A program made the translations under genes and the position numbers. Under the pieces are notes generated by a model, which saw only the letters and a list, made by a program, of their open reading frames with translations, had not been told where the DNA came from and searched no databases. Positions 5,483 through 35,243 of a stretch of 41,420 nucleotides of DNA are shown one piece after another. Where the stretch lies: positions 1 through 41,420 of the IMG/VR virus record IMGVR_UViG_2721755647_000003; one strand, 5' to 3'. Source of the stretch: a virus (taxonomy: Duplodnaviria; Heunggongvirae; Uroviricota; Caudoviricetes). Position 1 is the first letter of the stretch. Each line of letters starts with the position of its first letter.

Positions 5483-5572
5483 TTACCTCGGTCTGTTACC
5501 GTTGAGGTAATAATTATGCGTATATGGTTTGATGTCAATAGATATGAGTTAAAAAAATTACCCGTTAGGTAA
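5483..5572. promoter_or_regulatory. Left operator cluster: half-site TTACC at 5483, perfect TTACC-N5-GGTAA at 5496-5510 and 5558-5572
   Basis: Exact inverted repeats read from sequence; lie between the repressor gene terminator and the leftward early genes, the PL/OL position. Confidence 0.55.
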
Positions 5573-5629: not shown

Positions 5630-6214
5630 TTATTGTTTGTTTTTTTCGTTCTGGTTGATGACAAATTCAATGTAACTTTCGATCTTTGCTTTCTCGGTTT
5701 CGGGTAACAATGCGTAGCGCGAGCGATCATAGTTGATGGTCGCAGGGTCGTGCGGGTGAATCAGTAATTCATAGCCGTGACGCCCGAATGCGGATGCAAC
5801 ATTCTCCAGGGTGGAAATGGAAACGCTGACCTCATTGTTTAACAGGCGGCTGATTGTCACCTGGGCTACGCCGGATGCGCGGTGAAGTTTTCCCTGTGTT
5901 GAAAGGTCGCGGCTTTCGCTCATCCAGCGTTCCAGGTTGTGAGCCGCCAGCTGGCCAATGTCGCTTGGGCCGACAGGCTGAAAACCTTCCTGAGAAAGCG
6001 AGCGATCGATATCAAGCCAGTTACGGGGTTTATTGGCGGCAGCTTCAATTTTTCGTGCAACCTGGTCGCCGATAACCTTCTTGCCAAGAGCCCAGCGGTT
6101 TACCAGATTTGCCTGAGTTCCAAGTTTTTCAGCCATCCGCGTCTGAACACCATTGAATTCACGGTCGATCAAGTCGTTGAGATTTTGCCTGCGGACGTCC
6201 TGGATACTTTTCAT
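5630..6214 (-). CDS. Prophage repressor, CI-like, with two HTH (XRE-type) segments and no recognisable S24 peptidase domain (194 aa)
   Basis: HTH-like segments MAEKLGTQANLVNRWALGKK and VAQVTISRLLNNEVSVSISTLENVASAFG; divergent from a Cro-like gene; no GDSM-type Ser/Lys autocleavage motif seen. Confidence 0.75.
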   Translation of the reverse strand: MKSIQDVRRQNLNDLIDREFNGVQTRMAEKLGTQANLVNRWALGKKVIGDQVARKIEAAANKPRNWLDIDRSLSQEGFQPVGPSDIGQLAAHNLERWMSESRDLSTQGKLHRASGVAQVTISRLLNNEVSVSISTLENVASAFGRHGYELLIHPHDPATINYDRSRYALLPETEKAKIESYIEFVINQNEKNKQ

Positions 6215-6269: not shown

Positions 6270-6332
6270 TTACCCAACAGGTAAATGCACCCCACAGGTA
6301 ACTATCCTTGATTTTTGTTACCTTATGGGTGA
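6270..6332. promoter_or_regulatory. Right operator cluster between repressor and cro-like genes: perfect site 6270-6284, half-site about 6295, imperfect site 6318-6332 (GGTGA)
   Basis: TTACC-CAACA-GGTAA and TTACC-TTATG-GGTGA in the 154-bp divergent intergenic region. Confidence 0.6.
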
Positions 6333-6368
6333 ATATTTATTATCTGAAATAAATATCAGGCAATAGCT

Positions 6369-14921: not shown

Positions 14922-14998
14922 TGGCGTGGCATGCAGGATTCGAACCTGCGACCAACCGCTTAGAAGGCGGTTGCTCTGTCCGACTGAGCTAATGCCAC
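14922..14998 (-). tRNA. tRNA-Arg, anticodon UCU (77 nt, CCA encoded)
   Basis: Cloverleaf folded by hand: acceptor GTGGCAT/ATGCCAC, D-stem GCTC/GAGC, anticodon stem ACCGC/GCGGT with loop CTTCTAA, T-stem GCAGG/CCTGC, T-loop TTCGAAT, discriminator G, CCA. Confidence 0.85.
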
Positions 14999-28932: not shown

Positions 28933-31481
28933 TGGCAGCAAACGAATTTTTGACGCAGTGCGAGCGCAGTGTAAATGCTGCCGCTGGTCGCGAGCTTTCT
29001 TCCGATGAGATGGAGTCGCTGGTGCGTGACATGAACGACACCACTAGGCGAATTCTGGCGACCAATGAGGCGCTGTCTCTGGAAGAGGCCGCGATGCGCG
29101 CAGCGGAAGAACTGAGCAATGCCGATATGCTGGCAAAACAGATTGAGGCTCGCAATAAGGCAATCAACACCCGTATTGCCGCACAACGACTTAGAGAGCT
29201 TCGTACTATCTGGAAAGACCGCCCGGATATCGGGCTTGAAGCAATGCTGGTTGGCCGCAACGATGCGCGTACCGGCGCCCGCCGGTCGGTATCTTCGGAG
29301 GTGGCGCAACTGCGCGGCAAGTATCATTCCGGTATCAACTACGATTTTGACCGTGCCGGGCTGGTGCAATTCATCGCCAGCGGCAGCAATGACAGGGAAA
29401 TTGCCGATGCAATGTGGCGCATAGGGCGCGGGCAGTCAACTGACGGTATGACAAAGCAATCCGTAAGCGCTGCACAAATCATCATGAAATGGCAGGAAAC
29501 TGCGCGCATTGATGAGAACCGCGCCGGGGCATGGATACGCAAAGAGCCGGGCTATATAGTGCGCCAGTCACACGACATCATGAAGATCCGCGCCGCAGGT
29601 TATGAAGCATGGCGAAATGCTATTCTCCCGCGCCTTGATGAGCGCACTTTTGACGGCGTGGCTGACCGCGAGCAGTTCATGCGTAACATTTATAACGGGC
29701 TGGCTTCCGGCGTGCATCTTACATCTGAAAAGCCAGATTGGATGAATGGCTTTAAGGGATCGGCGAACGCAGCTAAACGCGCCAGCCAAGAGCGAATTTT
29801 GCACTTCAAAGATGGTATCTCGTGGCACGAGTACAACCAGCAATTCGGCACCGGCAGCCTGCGAGAGGCGCTGTTTGGTGGCTTAAACAGCGCTGCCCGC
29901 ACAACGGGCATGATGCGCGTACTGGGCACTAACCCACAGAACATGTTTAAGTACCTGACGGACACCATTGCTGAAGATATCAGCAAATCCGGAAGACCGG
30001 CAGCGTTGGCTGACTACATGACGAAGGTGCGTCGCATTAACCGTACCGTAATGCCGCAGGTTGACGGCTCGCTAAATATTCCTGGCAGCGTAGGCTGGGC
30101 CAATGCGTCGGCGGCTGTACGCGGCTGGTTGCGTATGAGCCAGCTTGGTGGCGCGGTAATCTCATCGTTTAACGACGTGCCTATCGCCGCTACCGAGATG
30201 CGCTACCAAGGGCAGAATTTTATGCAGGCGTTGCTTGGTGCTATGAGAGGCCGCTTCACGCGTTACAACAGCGCGGAGCAGAAAGAGATCCTTTCCTCTA
30301 TCGGAGTTTATTCCGACTCCATGACGCAGGAAATCATCCGGCGCATATCTGGTGATGACACGCTGAATGGAAAACTTGGTCGCGCGCAGCAGCTTTTCTT
30401 TAAGTACAACCTCATGAACTTCTGGACCGAGAGCGGTCGTAACAGCAACGCCATGATGATAACCAACTGGCTTGCAAAGAATGCTGACCAGTCTCATGCG
30501 CGGCTACCGGAAGACCTGCGACGCGTGCTGGATCTGCACGGTATTGGCGAACGTGAGTGGGAAATTTTTCGTAACATGGACATGGCCGATAGCGAAGGTC
30601 GTAAGTTCATGACGACCAGCGGCATGCGCGGCGTGCCTGACGAAGTGATTGCCGGTTATGTAGAGAGTAAGGGGATCAAACCAACGCAGCGCGCTATCGC
30701 TGACGCACGCGATCAATTGGAAGGGCAGTTGCGCGGCTACATCCTTGACCGCCTGAATATCGCCATGTCAGAGCCTGGCGATCGCACGCAGGCGTTTATG
30801 AAGATGGGCACGGTGCCAGGAACGGTGGCTGGGGAAGCAATACGATTCGCTGGTCAATACAAATCGTTCACTGCAAGCTTCATGCAGAACGTACTAGGAC
30901 GCGAAGTATTCGGGCGTGGTTATATTCCTGCTGGGCTTGGTGAGTCGAAAACCGGATCGCTGACGAATGCGCTGCTACGTAACGGGAAGGGGGCTTTCCT
31001 TGGTGCTGCAAACCTCTTTGTCTGGGCGACTATGTTTGGTTATATCTCCATGCAGTCAAAACTCATGCTGAAAGGGCAAACACCACGCCCGGCAGATGCC
31101 AAGACGTTTCTCGCAGCCGCATCTCAGGGGGGCGGTCTTGGCATCTTGGGTGACTTCATGTTTGGCGAGGTCAACCGCATGGGGGCCGGGCCGGTTACGT
31201 CGCTAATGGGACCGGCAGCATCGAACGCTGACAGCATTATCACGCTGCTCCAGCAGACCACGAGAGGGGATGCAGATTTGGGTGACTGGTATCGCACGGC
31301 ACTTGACAATACGCCATTCCTCAACGTGTTCTGGCTTCGTACGGCGATGAATGGTTTAATATTGAACAGGATACAAGATGCCCTTGACCCAGGCTCTCTT
31401 GAGCGTTATCAGCGCCGTGTTGAGCGTGAGCAGGGTAACGACTTTCTGATCCCACCATCGCAGTTCATGCTAGGTAAATAA
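28932..31481 (+). CDS. Internal virion / DNA ejection protein (849 aa), gp16-position
   Basis: Large ORF coupled to the previous gene; last gene of the GC-rich structural block. Confidence 0.6.
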   Translation: MAANEFLTQCERSVNAAAGRELSSDEMESLVRDMNDTTRRILATNEALSLEEAAMRAAEELSNADMLAKQIEARNKAINTRIAAQRLRELRTIWKDRPDIGLEAMLVGRNDARTGARRSVSSEVAQLRGKYHSGINYDFDRAGLVQFIASGSNDREIADAMWRIGRGQSTDGMTKQSVSAAQIIMKWQETARIDENRAGAWIRKEPGYIVRQSHDIMKIRAAGYEAWRNAILPRLDERTFDGVADREQFMRNIYNGLASGVHLTSEKPDWMNGFKGSANAAKRASQERILHFKDGISWHEYNQQFGTGSLREALFGGLNSAARTTGMMRVLGTNPQNMFKYLTDTIAEDISKSGRPAALADYMTKVRRINRTVMPQVDGSLNIPGSVGWANASAAVRGWLRMSQLGGAVISSFNDVPIAATEMRYQGQNFMQALLGAMRGRFTRYNSAEQKEILSSIGVYSDSMTQEIIRRISGDDTLNGKLGRAQQLFFKYNLMNFWTESGRNSNAMMITNWLAKNADQSHARLPEDLRRVLDLHGIGEREWEIFRNMDMADSEGRKFMTTSGMRGVPDEVIAGYVESKGIKPTQRAIADARDQLEGQLRGYILDRLNIAMSEPGDRTQAFMKMGTVPGTVAGEAIRFAGQYKSFTASFMQNVLGREVFGRGYIPAGLGESKTGSLTNALLRNGKGAFLGAANLFVWATMFGYISMQSKLMLKGQTPRPADAKTFLAAASQGGGLGILGDFMFGEVNRMGAGPVTSLMGPAASNADSIITLLQQTTRGDADLGDWYRTALDNTPFLNVFWLRTAMNGLILNRIQDALDPGSLERYQRRVEREQGNDFLIPPSQFMLGK

Positions 31482-31483
31482 TA

Positions 31484-32044
31484 ATGAAGGCAATTATATT
31501 TTTTGTTTCAATATTGATGTCTGCATTTTCTTTTGCAGGGCAAAATGTTAAATGCGAACTTCAATACTTTGGAGATAGCGATAAATTTAAGGTAACTCAG
31601 TTTTCTTTTATGGGGATTCCATCTGATTCATACCTTTATACCTGTGCCGACTGTGGAGGCATCCAGATAAACGTGTTCCCATCTATTCAGACTGTTGCTT
31701 CCTACTCATTTGAAAACAACATTGATTTCGAAAGGAAAATCAATGCTGAATACAACAGAAAAGACATAGCTAAACTTGAGATGGAAAACGTTACTCAAGG
31801 CGGGAGAATAAAATATTCAATCACCGATACTGGTTTGGCAGAGTTTTACCCAGAGGGCAAAAAGATAAGCTACCTCTACTTTTTAGCCAAGCAACAAAAT
31901 GGTAAAGAACAAGTAGGTTATTCAGGATTTGTTACCTCTAACGGGGATAAGTCATGCTCAATTATTGCGACATATCCAGGAAAAGAAATTTCTTTTCTGG
32001 GAAGTAAATCTCTAAGCTACTTTATGAATCATATATCAATGTAG
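31484..32044 (+). CDS. AT-rich secreted protein of unknown function (186 aa), signal peptide predicted by eye
   Basis: N-terminal MKAIIFFVSILMSAFSFAGQ hydrophobic signal; Cys-containing mature part; marked AT-richness relative to neighbours. Confidence 0.6.
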   Translation: MKAIIFFVSILMSAFSFAGQNVKCELQYFGDSDKFKVTQFSFMGIPSDSYLYTCADCGGIQINVFPSIQTVASYSFENNIDFERKINAEYNRKDIAKLEMENVTQGGRIKYSITDTGLAEFYPEGKKISYLYFLAKQQNGKEQVGYSGFVTSNGDKSCSIIATYPGKEISFLGSKSLSYFMNHISM

Positions 32045-32045
32045 C

Positions 32046-32057
32046 GTGACATGTCAC
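32046..32057. repeat. Perfect 12-bp palindrome GTGACATGTCAC (copy 3)
   Basis: Exact sequence; 1 nt after the TAG stop, directly followed by a terminator hairpin. Confidence 0.9.
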
Positions 32058-32083
32058 AGGCCGCTTTCGCGGCCTTGTTTTTT
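32058..32083 (+). terminator. Intrinsic terminator after the secreted-protein gene
   Basis: AGGCCGC-TTTC-GCGGCCT followed by TGTTTTTT. Confidence 0.65.
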
Positions 32084-32160
32084 AACGAATGCCGCCTCCG
32101 CCCGGGCGGGAATCCGCAGAACGCCCACCGCAGCGGGAGCCGTCAGCGGCAGTATCGTTG

Positions 32161-32673
32161 TTATACTATTGAATTAAATGATATCTTGTCCTTAATATCA
32201 TTAAGTTTGCCATATATCTTTTTTGCATAAGAATCAGCTTCCTCAATAAACTTCGACTTCTCATTATCAGGCATATTTTTGAAGGTATGTGCACATGTAT
32301 ATTGAGAGTAGTAATTGTGAAACTTGTTATACAAATTATTGAGTTCTTGTAAGTCTTTTTTATACTCAGGAAGGTATATGTTTATTAGCATTTCCATCGT
32401 TTGCAACGGATTGACTTTTGATGTGTCAAATTTACTACCAGAGTGGTAACTGGCATTGTTAACAAAATTGAGAATAGCCACTTCGCTTGAAGCTATGACT
32501 TTTTCAGTAAGTATGCAATTTGTGAATAATTGCTCACGTTTATCTCTTAATATTTTTTCGCGCTCTAATTTTATGCTGTTTTTGTATCCTTGCCTTGCAC
32601 TTATGTAAGTAGAAACTATAGCAATAACTGCACCTATCAATGCGCCTAAGATAGTATTATCCATATAAGCCAC
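32161..32673 (-). CDS. AT-rich membrane-anchored protein of unknown function (170 aa; one N-terminal TM helix, then coiled-coil-like domain)
   Basis: Hydrophobic TILGALIGAVIAIVSTYI segment; Lys/Asn/Tyr-rich remainder; third gene of a minus-strand operon. Confidence 0.6.
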   Translation of the reverse strand: MAYMDNTILGALIGAVIAIVSTYISARQGYKNSIKLEREKILRDKREQLFTNCILTEKVIASSEVAILNFVNNASYHSGSKFDTSKVNPLQTMEMLINIYLPEYKKDLQELNNLYNKFHNYYSQYTCAHTFKNMPDNEKSKFIEEADSYAKKIYGKLNDIKDKISFNSIV

Positions 32674-33788: not shown

Positions 33789-33803
33789 TTACCTTTAAGG
33801 TAA
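33789..33803. promoter_or_regulatory. Perfect palindrome TTACC-TTTAA-GGTAA upstream of the AT-rich operon
   Basis: Exact sequence; a TAATAT -10-like hexamer lies immediately upstream on the minus strand. Confidence 0.55.
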
Positions 33804-33868
33804 TATTACGCGAATCTACATCACATCGCCAATGATTATTTTAAAGGCACATCCCTGTGCCGCCGCCG

Positions 33869-34579
33869 TCAGAAGAACCCTGCCTTGTCGTTGATGTACT
33901 CCGCGTGGGTCTGGATATCACGCAGGCATTTACTCACACCGACGATGTAGCAGAACATGGTGGTCAGCTCCGCCGCCGCGCCCGATACATCGTGCCCGTC
34001 TTCCTGTAACTGGTTTAGCAGATTCATCAGCAGTGAGTTCTCCGTCAGGCCGAGAACACCAGACGGCGAATGAATCAGGCTACGGTAGCCGGGCTTCAGT
34101 GGGGCACTGTAGGTTTTGTTCTCTATCTTCATCGCCTGCATTACTGCTGACGCCGTGGCGTTGGCTACCTGGTCGGCAACCATCTTTATGCGTTCTTCCT
34201 GCGGGAGCGAGTTTTTAATGTAGCTTCCGGTGCGGCGGATCTGAGGAAGAACCTCACCTGTAACCCATTTACGAAAGCGGTAGGGGATAGTGCCTGGTGT
34301 CACCGCATCGCGGCAGCGGAGGATCAGTGTGTAGAGGCCTGACTCGGAGATGATGTTGATCTCTTTTACTCGGCTGTCAAAAATTGCACGATGTTCATGC
34401 CCTATGTTGAACATAGACCTTTCATCATCATCCAGTTTTTCAAGTGCTTGGGTGACGTTTTGGATACGCAGCGCACTACAAACGTCTTGGGCTACAAACC
34501 ATGGTTGGCCATCGATAATGATGGAACGGATAGGGTTAACAGATTCAAATTTGAAGATGGCAGTTTGAGCATTAGCCAT
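33869..34579 (-). CDS. Bro-N domain antirepressor-like protein (236 aa)
   Basis: N-terminal FKFESVNPIRSIIIDGQPWFVAQDVCSALRIQN...ESGLYTLILRC Bro-N pattern; ATG at 34579 with GGAGAT RBS. Confidence 0.75.
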   Translation of the reverse strand: MANAQTAIFKFESVNPIRSIIIDGQPWFVAQDVCSALRIQNVTQALEKLDDDERSMFNIGHEHRAIFDSRVKEINIISESGLYTLILRCRDAVTPGTIPYRFRKWVTGEVLPQIRRTGSYIKNSLPQEERIKMVADQVANATASAVMQAMKIENKTYSAPLKPGYRSLIHSPSGVLGLTENSLLMNLLNQLQEDGHDVSGAAAELTTMFCYIVGVSKCLRDIQTHAEYINDKAGFF

Positions 34580-34733
34580 GGTGGTTATCTCCACTTAGTG
34601 ATTTTAATCACCACCGCAACGCCAATTACTGGTGGTGAACTGGACAAGGTTGGCGTACCGGCCTAAGTGGTACCGGCGTCCTTTCGGACCCCTGCCCAGC
34701 CCACCATAATTCGGATATAGCTGTGCTTAACGC

Positions 34734-34758
34734 ATAAAAAAACCACGTCTGGCGTGGT
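34734..34758 (-). terminator. Intrinsic terminator between the two Bro-related genes
   Basis: Minus strand reads ACCACG-CCAGA-CGTGGT followed by TTTTTTTAT. Confidence 0.5.
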
Positions 34759-34848
34759 ATGCGCCACTTAGTAACTCGGGACGCCAATCCCGGCACTGGA
34801 TTTTGCCAGTACCCGATTACTATGGCACAAGAGGAGTGCGATGTAAAT

Positions 34849-34863
34849 TTACCGCAAAGGTAA
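34849..34863. promoter_or_regulatory. Perfect palindrome TTACC-GCAAA-GGTAA
   Basis: Exact sequence, in the intergenic region between the two Bro-related genes. Confidence 0.5.
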
Positions 34864-34894
34864 ATATAAGCACTCCACTTGGTAATTGCAAACC

Positions 34895-35152
34895 TTATCT
34901 GGTTTGTTTTCGTAATTGTTCGGCACAATAGTCGAGATGTGTTTGCAGATCCCGCATAGACATCTGTGAGCTGGTGACGTAGTTAATCAGTGCAGTCAGT
35001 TCGGCAAGTGGGCCATCGACATTAAATCCATCCTTATCGAGATCCCGGAGTAATTTCATCAAGTGCGATCCCTCCACCAGTGACCTGACGCCTCCCGGCG
35101 TGTGAATCCTTTCGGTAAATCCGTCTTCCAGTGGATAGTGATACTGCTGCAT
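34895..35152 (-). CDS. Small protein (85 aa) homologous to the C-terminal domain of the adjacent Bro-N protein
   Basis: Aligns by eye to the Bro-N protein C-terminus (TPGGVRSLVEGSHLMKLLRDL...MRDLQTHLDYC versus SPSGVLGLTENSLLMNLLNQL...LRDIQTHAEYI); ATG at 35152 with GGAG RBS. Confidence 0.6.
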   Translation of the reverse strand: MQQYHYPLEDGFTERIHTPGGVRSLVEGSHLMKLLRDLDKDGFNVDGPLAELTALINYVTSSQMSMRDLQTHLDYCAEQLRKQTR

Positions 35153-35228
35153 CTTATCTTCTCCATGCAATAACTGTATAAATATACAGTATCAAATAAT
35201 TTGTTTGCTATCCAGCACGTTTTGCAAA

Positions 35229-35243
35229 TTACCTGAAAGGTAA
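35229..35243. promoter_or_regulatory. Perfect palindrome TTACC-TGAAA-GGTAA upstream of the tail fibre gene (identical to the 15321 copy)
   Basis: Exact sequence; TATGTGGTTTTT plus a GGTAAT half-site follow at 35275-35294. Confidence 0.55.

Follow-up and report, generated by a model that had tools for sequence, protein, structure and literature searches.

Two paralogous antirepressor-type genes in an epsilon15/phiV10-like phage, one behind a predicted LexA box and one behind a putative isrK/C4 RNA gate

The two genes and their common domain

The 41,420-nucleotide (nt) stretch considered here (IMG/VR virus record IMGVR_UViG_2721755647_000003, positions 1 to 41,420; 'the window' below means this whole stretch) is the near-complete genome of an epsilon15/phiV10-like temperate podovirus of the genus Uetakevirus, and our subject is the locus at 33869-35152, where a small gene, which we call ant(S), and a Bro-N gene, which we call ant(F), are separated by a spacer of ~300 nt (the proteins are written Ant(S) and Ant(F)). 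Over the 1.9 kb round the locus, the identity of the window is 99% with Escherichia phage HEMP4 and 93-95% with phiV10, TL-2011b and vB_EcoP_ZX5 (ZX5 hereafter). The original prediction had placed both open reading frames (ORFs) on the minus strand, and strand and coordinates were confirmed; the genes, and the site that precedes the first of them, are as follows.

35172-35191, minus strand: predicted LexA (SOS) box TACTGTATATTTATACAGTT, overlapping the ant(S) promoter
34895-35152, minus strand: ant(S), the small gene, 85 amino acids (aa), stand-alone antirepressor
33869-34579, minus strand: ant(F), the Bro-N gene, ATG at 34579, 236 aa

It had been claimed that the two products share a clearly alignable C-terminal segment and that the small gene is a stand-alone paralogue of the C-terminal domain of the Bro-N protein, and both claims hold. 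BLASTP aligned residues 155-228 of Ant(F) with residues 2-75 of Ant(S) without gaps, with 32 identities in 74 positions (43%, E 2e-20); both proteins matched phrog_450 (E 7e-48 for Ant(S), 4e-36 for Ant(F)), a stand-alone PHROG family of 88 aa labelled 'unknown function'; and both matched PDB chain 5D50_E, Ant(S) with E 1.4e-46 and Ant(F) with E 1.2e-13. The BLASTP E-value together with the common matches to phrog_450 and 5D50_E puts the similarity far beyond chance. By tblastn the window holds two copies of this Ant-like domain and no more. A weak tblastn match of the Bro C-domain at 1888-1983 on the plus strand (44% over 32 aa, E 0.02-0.15) was considered as an extra copy and judged to be chance, given its weak E-value and its position outside any ORF of at least 70 aa.

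The small gene has a close relative of solved structure. In the PDB sequence search residues 2-84 of Ant(S) aligned with residues 3-85 of 5D50_E ('Anti-repressor protein'), and in tblastn Ant(S) was 86.7% identical to the product of a gene named ant in the annotation of Salmonella phages SPC32H and SPC32N; its position, divergent from the tailspike gene, is that of SPC32H ant as well. By sequence, ant(S) is orthologous to the ant gene of SPC32H, a relation to which the domain libraries were blind, no Pfam or NCBIfam family being found for Ant(S) and PADLOC being blank also. Nothing resembling a Bro-N gene follows ant in SPC32H, and ant(S)-type genes without a fused partner occur in SPC32H, in epsilon15 and at 4 of the 9 species-representative prophage loci that our scan of prophage contigs returned (the collection holds one genome per species, and frequencies from it are rough).

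Upstream of ant(S), the LexA core CTGT-N8-ACAG, CTGTATAAATATACAG, lies at 35174-35189, 22 nt before the ATG, a feature which the original prediction had overlooked. The predicted box agrees at 18 of 20 positions with the LexA box consensus, TACTGTATATATATACAGTA, and it is conserved in all five phages that we aligned, namely the window, phiV10, Tyrion, a Klebsiella phage and SPC32H. By inspection the ant(S) promoter hexamers could be any of several weak candidates, all of which overlap the box. In SPC32H the LexA box reportedly controls ant (Kim and Ryu are said to have described this in 2013), and the phage repressor, Rep, reportedly stays uncleaved in the SOS response. The small Ant, from a promoter overlapping the LexA box, is said to inactivate Rep instead, an Ant tetramer reportedly binding two Rep dimers and breaking up the DNA-binding Rep tetramer. 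This Rep-Ant switch is summarised in PMC9638917 and is reportedly the subject of Kim & Ryu 2013 (J Virol 87:11775) and Kim et al. 2016 (PNAS 113:E2480).

The SPC32H switch (PDB 5D50, 5D4Z) is thus like the window in its Ant orthologue (~87%), its LexA box and the position of its gene, and also in a Rep with two helix-turn-helix (HTH) domains and no autocleavage domain and in enrichment of the palindrome TTACC-N5-GGTAA. Unlike the window, it has the stand-alone Ant alone, with no isrK, C4, fused paralogue or downstream cargo. The logic of ant(S), that is, a non-cleavable repressor, a LexA-type gate and a place outside the immunity region, is shared with the GfoA, GfhA and GftA proteins of the Gifsy phages, 186 Tum and N15 AntC. 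The Gifsy proteins are small antirepressors under direct LexA control that act with a non-cleavable repressor, and their genes lie in dinI operons (PMC3121763), unlike ant(S), which lies beside a paralogue with a putative C4 gate. We detected no homology of Ant(S) to Gifsy GfoA, 186 Tum or N15 AntC: the Ant-domain hits in our phage collection were confined to Uetakevirus-like phages and included no record of the phages that carry those proteins.

The original prediction went on to propose that the small protein, as a detached domain, could act as a dominant-negative or partner of the Bro-N antirepressor; we find the functional direction to be inverted, ant(S) being the orthologue of the self-sufficient SPC32H Ant. 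One could still suppose that antirepression is the work of the Bro-N protein, which the small protein modulates through mixed oligomers, either dominant-negatively or as a partner that it cannot do without. Both proteins share the homologous domain, the two genes are neighbours at more than half the loci, and mixed tetramers are conceivable, since the Ant domain reportedly tetramerises (summary in PMC9638917). We nevertheless hold such a role to be highly improbable. The antirepressor to which Ant(S) is 87% identical works, and crystallises with Rep, by itself; the stand-alone form occurs without a Bro-N partner in SPC32H, epsilon15 and the four prophage loci mentioned above; ant(S) has its own promoter with a LexA box, each paralogue having a separate promoter and gate; and the two are long diverged. 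In a neighbour-joining tree the S and F domains formed two reciprocally monophyletic clades, with S-F identity within a genome of 34-39%, from which we conclude that the paralogues are old and that both have been maintained. Recent tandem duplication and concerted evolution of the two copies are ruled out by the same tree. The S and F domains nevertheless have in common a set of invariant residues, which in Ant(S) numbering are Y4, P7, G11, I16, H17, P19, G21, V22, E27, G42, A50, E51, Y58 and H72.

The spacer RNAs and the operator-like palindromes

The spacer had been described as a terminator and an operator palindrome. Both are real, the former as the intrinsic terminator of an isrK RNA and the latter as one of 16 copies of a palindrome in the window; they are not all that the spacer contains, since genes for isrK and for a C4 RNA, each above its Rfam gathering score, had been overlooked. 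The features between the two genes are listed in the direction of transcription.

34863-34891, minus strand: promoter-like TTGCAA-17-TATATT, with the -10 ending on the first base of the operator-like palindrome
34849-34863: palindrome TTACCGCAAAGGTAA, upstream of the putative isrK promoter PisrK
34819-34847, minus strand: PisrK, TTTACA-17-(TG)cCATAGT, 9/12 matches, with TG extension
34736-34812, minus strand: isrK small RNA, equivalent of an a1/b1 decoy (RF01394, 63.5 bits, gathering score 50)
34781-34787: isrK element b1, UUGGCGU, in the second hairpin loop
34764-34771: isrK element a1, CUAAGUGG, in the linker
34742-34758, minus strand: isrK intrinsic terminator (34758->34742 plus U-run)
34628-34711, minus strand: C4 antisense RNA (RF01695, 66 bits, gathering score 45)
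34663-34670: C4 element a', CCACUUAG, in the loop of hairpin 2
34650-34656: C4 element b', ACGCCAA, single-stranded
34589-34625, minus strand: C4 target in the 5' untranslated region of ant(F), with b2 UUGGCGU at 34619-34625 and a2 CUAAGUGG at 34591-34598

The isrK region also drew a match to RF03163 (c4-a1b1) of 43.4 bits, slightly below the gathering score of 46.7. In the window a' is perfectly complementary to both a1 and a2 over 8 nt, and b' to both b1 and b2 over 7 nt, and a2 overlaps the Shine-Dalgarno (SD) sequence of ant(F), GGAG at 34589-34592. We compared the window with 13 related loci, some in phages and some in prophages, that span seven genera, and allowed G-U pairs. All four pairings, a':a1, a':a2, b':b1 and b':b2, are perfect in 14/14 loci, and in every one of them a2 lies on the ribosome-binding site, while the loci fall into eight combinatorial specificity classes (four a-types by three b-types) with a mean summed duplex energy of -21.0 kcal/mol within a class against -12.8 between classes. 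This three-way covariation across classes is strong comparative evidence that C4 would block ant(F) translation and that isrK would serve as its decoy. We note further that Rep is 100% identical in the window, phiV10, ZX5, phiv142-3 and EC.W1-9, yet these five phages represent four C4 classes, which suggests selection for distinct immI specificities.

An icd- or orf45-type leader coupled to ant(F) was looked for; no ORF terminates at 34579 or close to it. The sole frame that opens in C4 runs from an AUG at 34707 (AUGGUGGG) to a UAG at 34663-34665, a matter of 14 codons; its position matches the start of Gifsy-1 orf45, and it stops inside the a' loop, 84 nt before the ant(F) ATG, and thus cannot be coupled to ant(F).

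The arrangement recalls two known systems. The immI operon of P1 and P7 consists of the c4 antisense RNA, icd and ant1/2, and the two phages have a common immC and different immI. C4 of P1 comes from the transcript of its own target, with a1/b1 upstream and a2/b2 at the ribosome-binding site, and P1 immI has tandem promoters, one controlled by C1 and one constitutive. The window is like P1 immI in that C4 precedes the antirepressor gene in the same orientation and has two copies of its target, and like P1/P7 in that a shared repressor goes with differing C4 specificity and an operator at the upstream promoter is followed by a second promoter. It is unlike P1 in that there is no icd-like leader and a2 lies on the antirepressor gene's own SD, in that the antirepressor is a Bro-N::SPC32H-Ant-like fusion with a LexA-box paralogue directly upstream, and in that there are eight classes rather than two. 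In the isrK-orf45-anrP-isrJ unit of Gifsy-1, isrK is transcribed from a promoter of its own and ends at a leaky terminator, a C4-like RNA (STnc1160) is present and translation of the antirepressor depends on isrK (Hershko-Shalev et al. 2016, PMC4825925). The window has in common with it an isrK with its own promoter and rho-independent terminator, followed by C4 and an antirepressor-like gene; it differs in that orf45 is cut to a 14-codon remnant and in the family of the target repressor, and the Rfam scan found no isrJ match in the window.

At least one promoter, adjoining a Rep-type site, belongs to the isrK-C4-Bro-N unit itself. PisrK is invariant in the 14 loci, and the start that it predicts, 34812, falls on the 5' terminus of the Rfam match to isrK. 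The upstream TTGCAA-17-TATATT has the same geometry relative to the operator as a PL-like promoter beside rep, although its -35 is not kept in all relatives; as the sole isrK promoter it was set aside, the invariant TTTACA-17-CATAGT fitting the isrK 5' end better in the 14-locus alignment. We keep both sites as candidates for tandem promoters. In TL-2011b and EC.W1-9 insertions separate the unit from ant(S), with the operator, PisrK, isrK and C4 intact.

Each insertion consists of ~1 kb of foreign DNA with opposite-strand ORFs, placed precisely in the gap that follows the ant(S) stop codon and precedes the region of the isrK promoter. The gene called as a 319-aa Rha protein in a distant prophage (GCA_047784855.1) has been extended too far on its 5' side, across both isrK and C4; translation probably begins at the methionine of MNTSLS..., ~80 codons in. 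Gene callers probably mis-annotate such isrK-C4 loci routinely.

The palindrome upstream of PisrK belongs to a set that brings the repressor gene, distant from the locus, into the discussion.

5630-6214, minus strand: rep, 194-aa repressor with two HTH domains
5496-5510 and 5558-5572: palindromes on the PL side of rep
6270-6284 and 6318-6332: palindromes between rep and the cro-like gene, on the PR side
35229-35243: palindrome TTACCTGAAAGGTAA, between the tailspike gene and ant(S)
33789-33803: third palindrome, abutting a promoter-like TTGGCG-18-TAATAT that ends at 33803

Rep of the window matched 5D50_A ('Repressor') with E 4e-42 and is ~42% identical to SPC32H Rep; Pfam gave HTH_3 only, and no S24 autocleavage (peptidase) domain was found in it. 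Its C-terminal domain takes up residues ~89-194. Rep is presumed to be the target of both antirepressors. Allowing one mismatch or none, we counted 16 copies of TTACC-N5-GGTAA in the window, where 0.6 would be expected, and 18 in SPC32H, where 0.67 would be. In the window the copies start at 5496, 5558, 6270, 6318, 6655, 8595, 8657, 12124, 12142, 15321, 31846, 32435, 33789, 34849, 35229 and 38458. They cluster round rep, where they overlap a PR-like promoter (6315-6343), and the -10 of a PL-like promoter (5538->5510) abuts the copy at 5510->5496. This enrichment, the clustering round rep and the overlap with PR- and PL-like cores make TTACC-N5-GGTAA probably the Rep operator. Near the locus, TTACC and GGTAA of the copy at 34849-34863 are invariant in the 14 aligned loci; the copy at 35229-35243 is conserved in phiV10, Tyrion, the Klebsiella phage and SPC32H, that is, in all five phages aligned, and a palindrome lies ~97 nt upstream of ant in 8 of the 9 prophage loci. 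The promoter-like hexamers at the 33789-33803 copy were read by eye and are not listed by the promoter scan, and their geometry is PL-like.

Palindromes also precede several early and late gene blocks and are scattered genome-wide. Their distribution suggests a large Rep regulon, and perhaps an operator specificity shared across the family, the latter in view of the equal enrichment in SPC32H though the two Reps are just 42% identical.

The Bro-N::Ant-like fusion and its probable target

In Ant(F), Bro-N (PF02498) spans residues 17-112 (34244-34531; 71.5 bits against a cut-off of 25.6, E 1e-19) and the Ant-like domain lies at 33887-34117, where residues 155-231 match 5D50_E. The whole protein matched phrog_130, 'anti-repressor Ant', with E 8e-57, and the C-terminal part had no match in Pfam, NCBIfam or PADLOC. 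In an AlphaFold2 monomer model the predicted local distance difference test score (pLDDT) is 82-90 over most of residues 11-110, and residues 120-236 are helical with a low-confidence pLDDT of 37-67; such a low score for the C-terminal half, modelled as a monomer, would fit a protein that is obligately oligomeric.

The distribution of the domain is narrow. A profile of it, run against 1.84 billion representative proteins, returned 60 cluster representatives, mostly stand-alone proteins of 80-95 aa, some with the domain C-terminal to Bro-N, AntA, Phage_pRha or, weakly, ORF6N. Among 50,697 phage records the Ant domain was present in 34-35 and Rep homologues in 37, in the same Uetakevirus-like set, whose members infect Escherichia, Salmonella, Enterobacter and Klebsiella. 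Within it, the E. coli sister phages with Rep 98.5-100% identical keep the fused C-terminal ~90 residues at 94-100% identity and swap the N-domain, with three Bro-N variants (that of the window, that of the ZX5/phiV10/TL-2011b group and that of EC.W1-9) and, in phiv142-3, AntA in place of Bro-N. Even in a distant prophage with an Ant 44% identical the whole architecture is kept, there with Rha (Phage_pRha) as the N-domain. The constancy of the C-domain, the interchangeability of the N-domain and the restriction to Rep-encoding phages all point to the F C-domain as the effector, acting on Rep.

A third Ant-domain gene occurs in TL-2011b, in the stretch 31060-32244 of that phage: gp42 (314 aa) joins P22_AR_N to a C-domain of F type that shares 46% identity with Ant(S) (E 4e-21), and a gene for an Arc-like repressor precedes it. 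Read from its sequence, this pair is a P22-immI-style gate on the F-type effector domain. HEMP4 likewise gave three tblastn places for the Ant domain.

Phage regulators built by domain shuffling from KilA-N, Bro-N, Rha and AntA were reportedly described by Iyer, Koonin and Aravind in 2002 (Genome Biol). The present proteins are like them in pairing a Bro-N, AntA, Rha, ORF6N or P22_AR_N N-domain with an interchangeable C-module. They are unlike the others in that the C-module is tied to a protein of solved structure with a known partner, the 5D50 Ant.

When ORF4 of ZX5 was overexpressed, the prophage titre fell 1000-fold, from 10^9 to 10^6, and rep mRNA dropped by 75% (PMC9782041); the C-domain of ORF4 is 100% identical to that of the window's Ant(F). 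We regard these data as independent experimental support, of limited rigour.

Another possibility is that ant(F) is directed at the repressors of other prophages (cross-induction, as with Gifsy/Fels), or that the domain merely tetramerises an N-terminal DNA-binding regulator. The identity to Ant is just 43%, and Bro-N, AntA, Rha and P22_AR_N, which Iyer and co-workers are said to have described in 2002 as DNA-binding, are the usual N-domains of annotated phage antirepressors. Moreover, antirepressors acting in trans on non-cognate repressors are documented (PMC3121763), and Gifsy-1 AnrP, behind the same isrK gate, switches on antQ (PMC4825925). We consider such alternative targets or functions unlikely, because in sequenced phages the Ant-like domain is found just where a Rep homologue occurs, because sisters with the same Rep keep the C-domain and vary the N-domain, the opposite of what a function of the N-domain would lead one to expect, and because overexpression of the ZX5 orthologue reduced the lysogeny of ZX5 itself (PMC9782041).

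It might also be supposed that ant(F) is a decaying or neutral passenger on a mobile isrK-C4-antirepressor cassette that happens to sit beside ant. Unrelated phages, lambdoid and Stx, commonly carry isrK-C4 cassettes, many relatives are without one, insertions part it from ant in TL-2011b and EC.W1-9, and the phiV10 copy is frameshifted. To this we object that the cassette with an F-type domain is kept at the same place in at least seven genera (Escherichia, Enterobacter, Klebsiella, Citrobacter, Erwinia, Superficieibacter and Scandinavium), including the prophage with Ant 44% identical, that the F clade is old and monophyletic, that the F domain is restricted to Rep-encoding phages and that the three-way RNA complementarity is present in every locus despite eight classes; mere passage appears improbable to us. 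As to phiV10, the type phage of the group, its 'anti-immunity protein' p23 (194 aa) and p22 (29 aa) are together one frameshifted ant(F), and by this reading it probably has no functional fused antirepressor.

A proposed switch with two inputs, and its surroundings

We therefore favour, as the fairly probable explanation, an arrangement in which one Rep receives two antirepressor inputs, an SOS-gated ant(S) and an ant(F) behind a P1-like immI RNA gate, and we infer that Ant(F) binds Rep and has a latch or anti-immunity role. In the lysogen, LexA would keep the ant(S) promoter shut. Upon DNA damage LexA would be lost, and the Ant tetramer made from ant(S) would bind Rep and strip it from its operators. 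The ant(F) transcript would come from its own promoters beside the Rep-operator palindrome, and C4, produced from that same transcript, would pair through a' and b' with the SD region of ant(F) and block its translation, unless titrated by isrK, which carries a copy of the targets (a1, b1). In the lysogen ant(F) would thus be under two locks, Rep acting on its promoter and C4 on its ribosome-binding site. Once Rep has been inactivated by Ant(S), however, the Rep-controlled promoter would fire, isrK would outnumber and titrate C4, and Ant(F) would be made.

Induction through LexA and an antirepressor is reversible in principle (Lemire et al., PMC3121763), and a second, Rep-controlled antirepressor would turn such reversible induction into a latch: Ant(F) would reinforce the inactivation of Rep, which might then hold even if LexA recovers, committing the cell. 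In a newly infected cell without a matching C4, Ant(F) would be made and the decision perhaps biased to lysis, and the C4 gate would then act as a second immunity specificity in the style of P1/P7.

Several points weigh against this proposal. A resident Rep identical to that of the incoming phage would shut the incoming ant(F) promoter, which weakens a pure anti-immunity reading, and the operator at 34849-34863 spans -51 to -37 of PisrK, where Rep might activate rather than repress. Ant(F) is 43% identical to Ant(S), and its specificity could differ; given the low AlphaFold2 confidence, the fold of its Ant-like domain is assigned by sequence. The ZX5 experiment was a plasmid overexpression of a glutathione S-transferase (GST) fusion with no binding assay (PMC9782041). 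Finally, about half of the relatives are without ant(F), and the frameshift of phiV10 lies inside the fused Ant-like domain, from which it follows that ant(F) is dispensable for the basic life cycle.

A wider generalisation, which we offer tentatively and with some doubt, would make the F-type Ant domain a portable 'warhead' against Rep, carried by at least four to five N-domains and placed behind at least two kinds of gate (C4, in at least eight classes, and Arc), so as to form a second, fast-diversifying immI layer on an identical Rep and, together with ant(S), an SOS trigger followed by an irreversible latch.

Downstream of ant(F) the same strand continues as follows.

33846-33861, minus strand: weak hairpin GGCACA-GGGA-TGTGCC, then UUUAAAAU, after ant(F); possible terminator
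33762->32161, minus strand: three cargo genes (69, 287 and 170 aa), preceded by the promoter-like site and operator at 33789-33803

The hairpin was read from the letters and the terminator scan did not report it. The three cargo genes gave no Pfam, NCBIfam or PADLOC match. In TL-2011b the cargo slot holds a YafO toxin and the pair of the Arc-like and P22_AR_N::Ant-like genes; in phiv142-3 and EC.W1-9 it holds other small ORFs, and in SPC32H it is empty. Elsewhere, in the half of the window with the virion genes, a tRNA gene lies at 14925-14998 on the minus strand (Rfam, 73 bits), with a tRNA-Arg of SPC32H at the equivalent place.

Of 5,426 complete E. coli genomes, 533 contain a match to the locus; the RefSeq E. 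coli rows that we inspected label ant(S) 'hypothetical protein', and the antirepressor label goes to its Bro-N neighbour. The ZX5 study likewise overlooked ant(S), the LexA box and the link to SPC32H (PMC9782041). Each part of the arrangement is known, be it the Rep-Ant switch, the C4/isrK gates or Bro-N shuffling, and what we describe is an assembly and no new principle. In the databases and literature that we searched we did not find the C-module identified as a paralogue of Ant, placed beside the LexA-gated original and behind an RNA gate with at least eight specificities on a constant repressor.

For a subset of the proteins annotated as 'Bro-N/AntA/Rha antirepressors', the homology of the C-module to a crystallised Rep-binding tetramer would provide a structural and mechanistic anchor. 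By bringing SOS antirepression together with a P1/P7-like RNA immunity, the arrangement would also make super-immunity, cross-induction and commitment in polylysogens testable.

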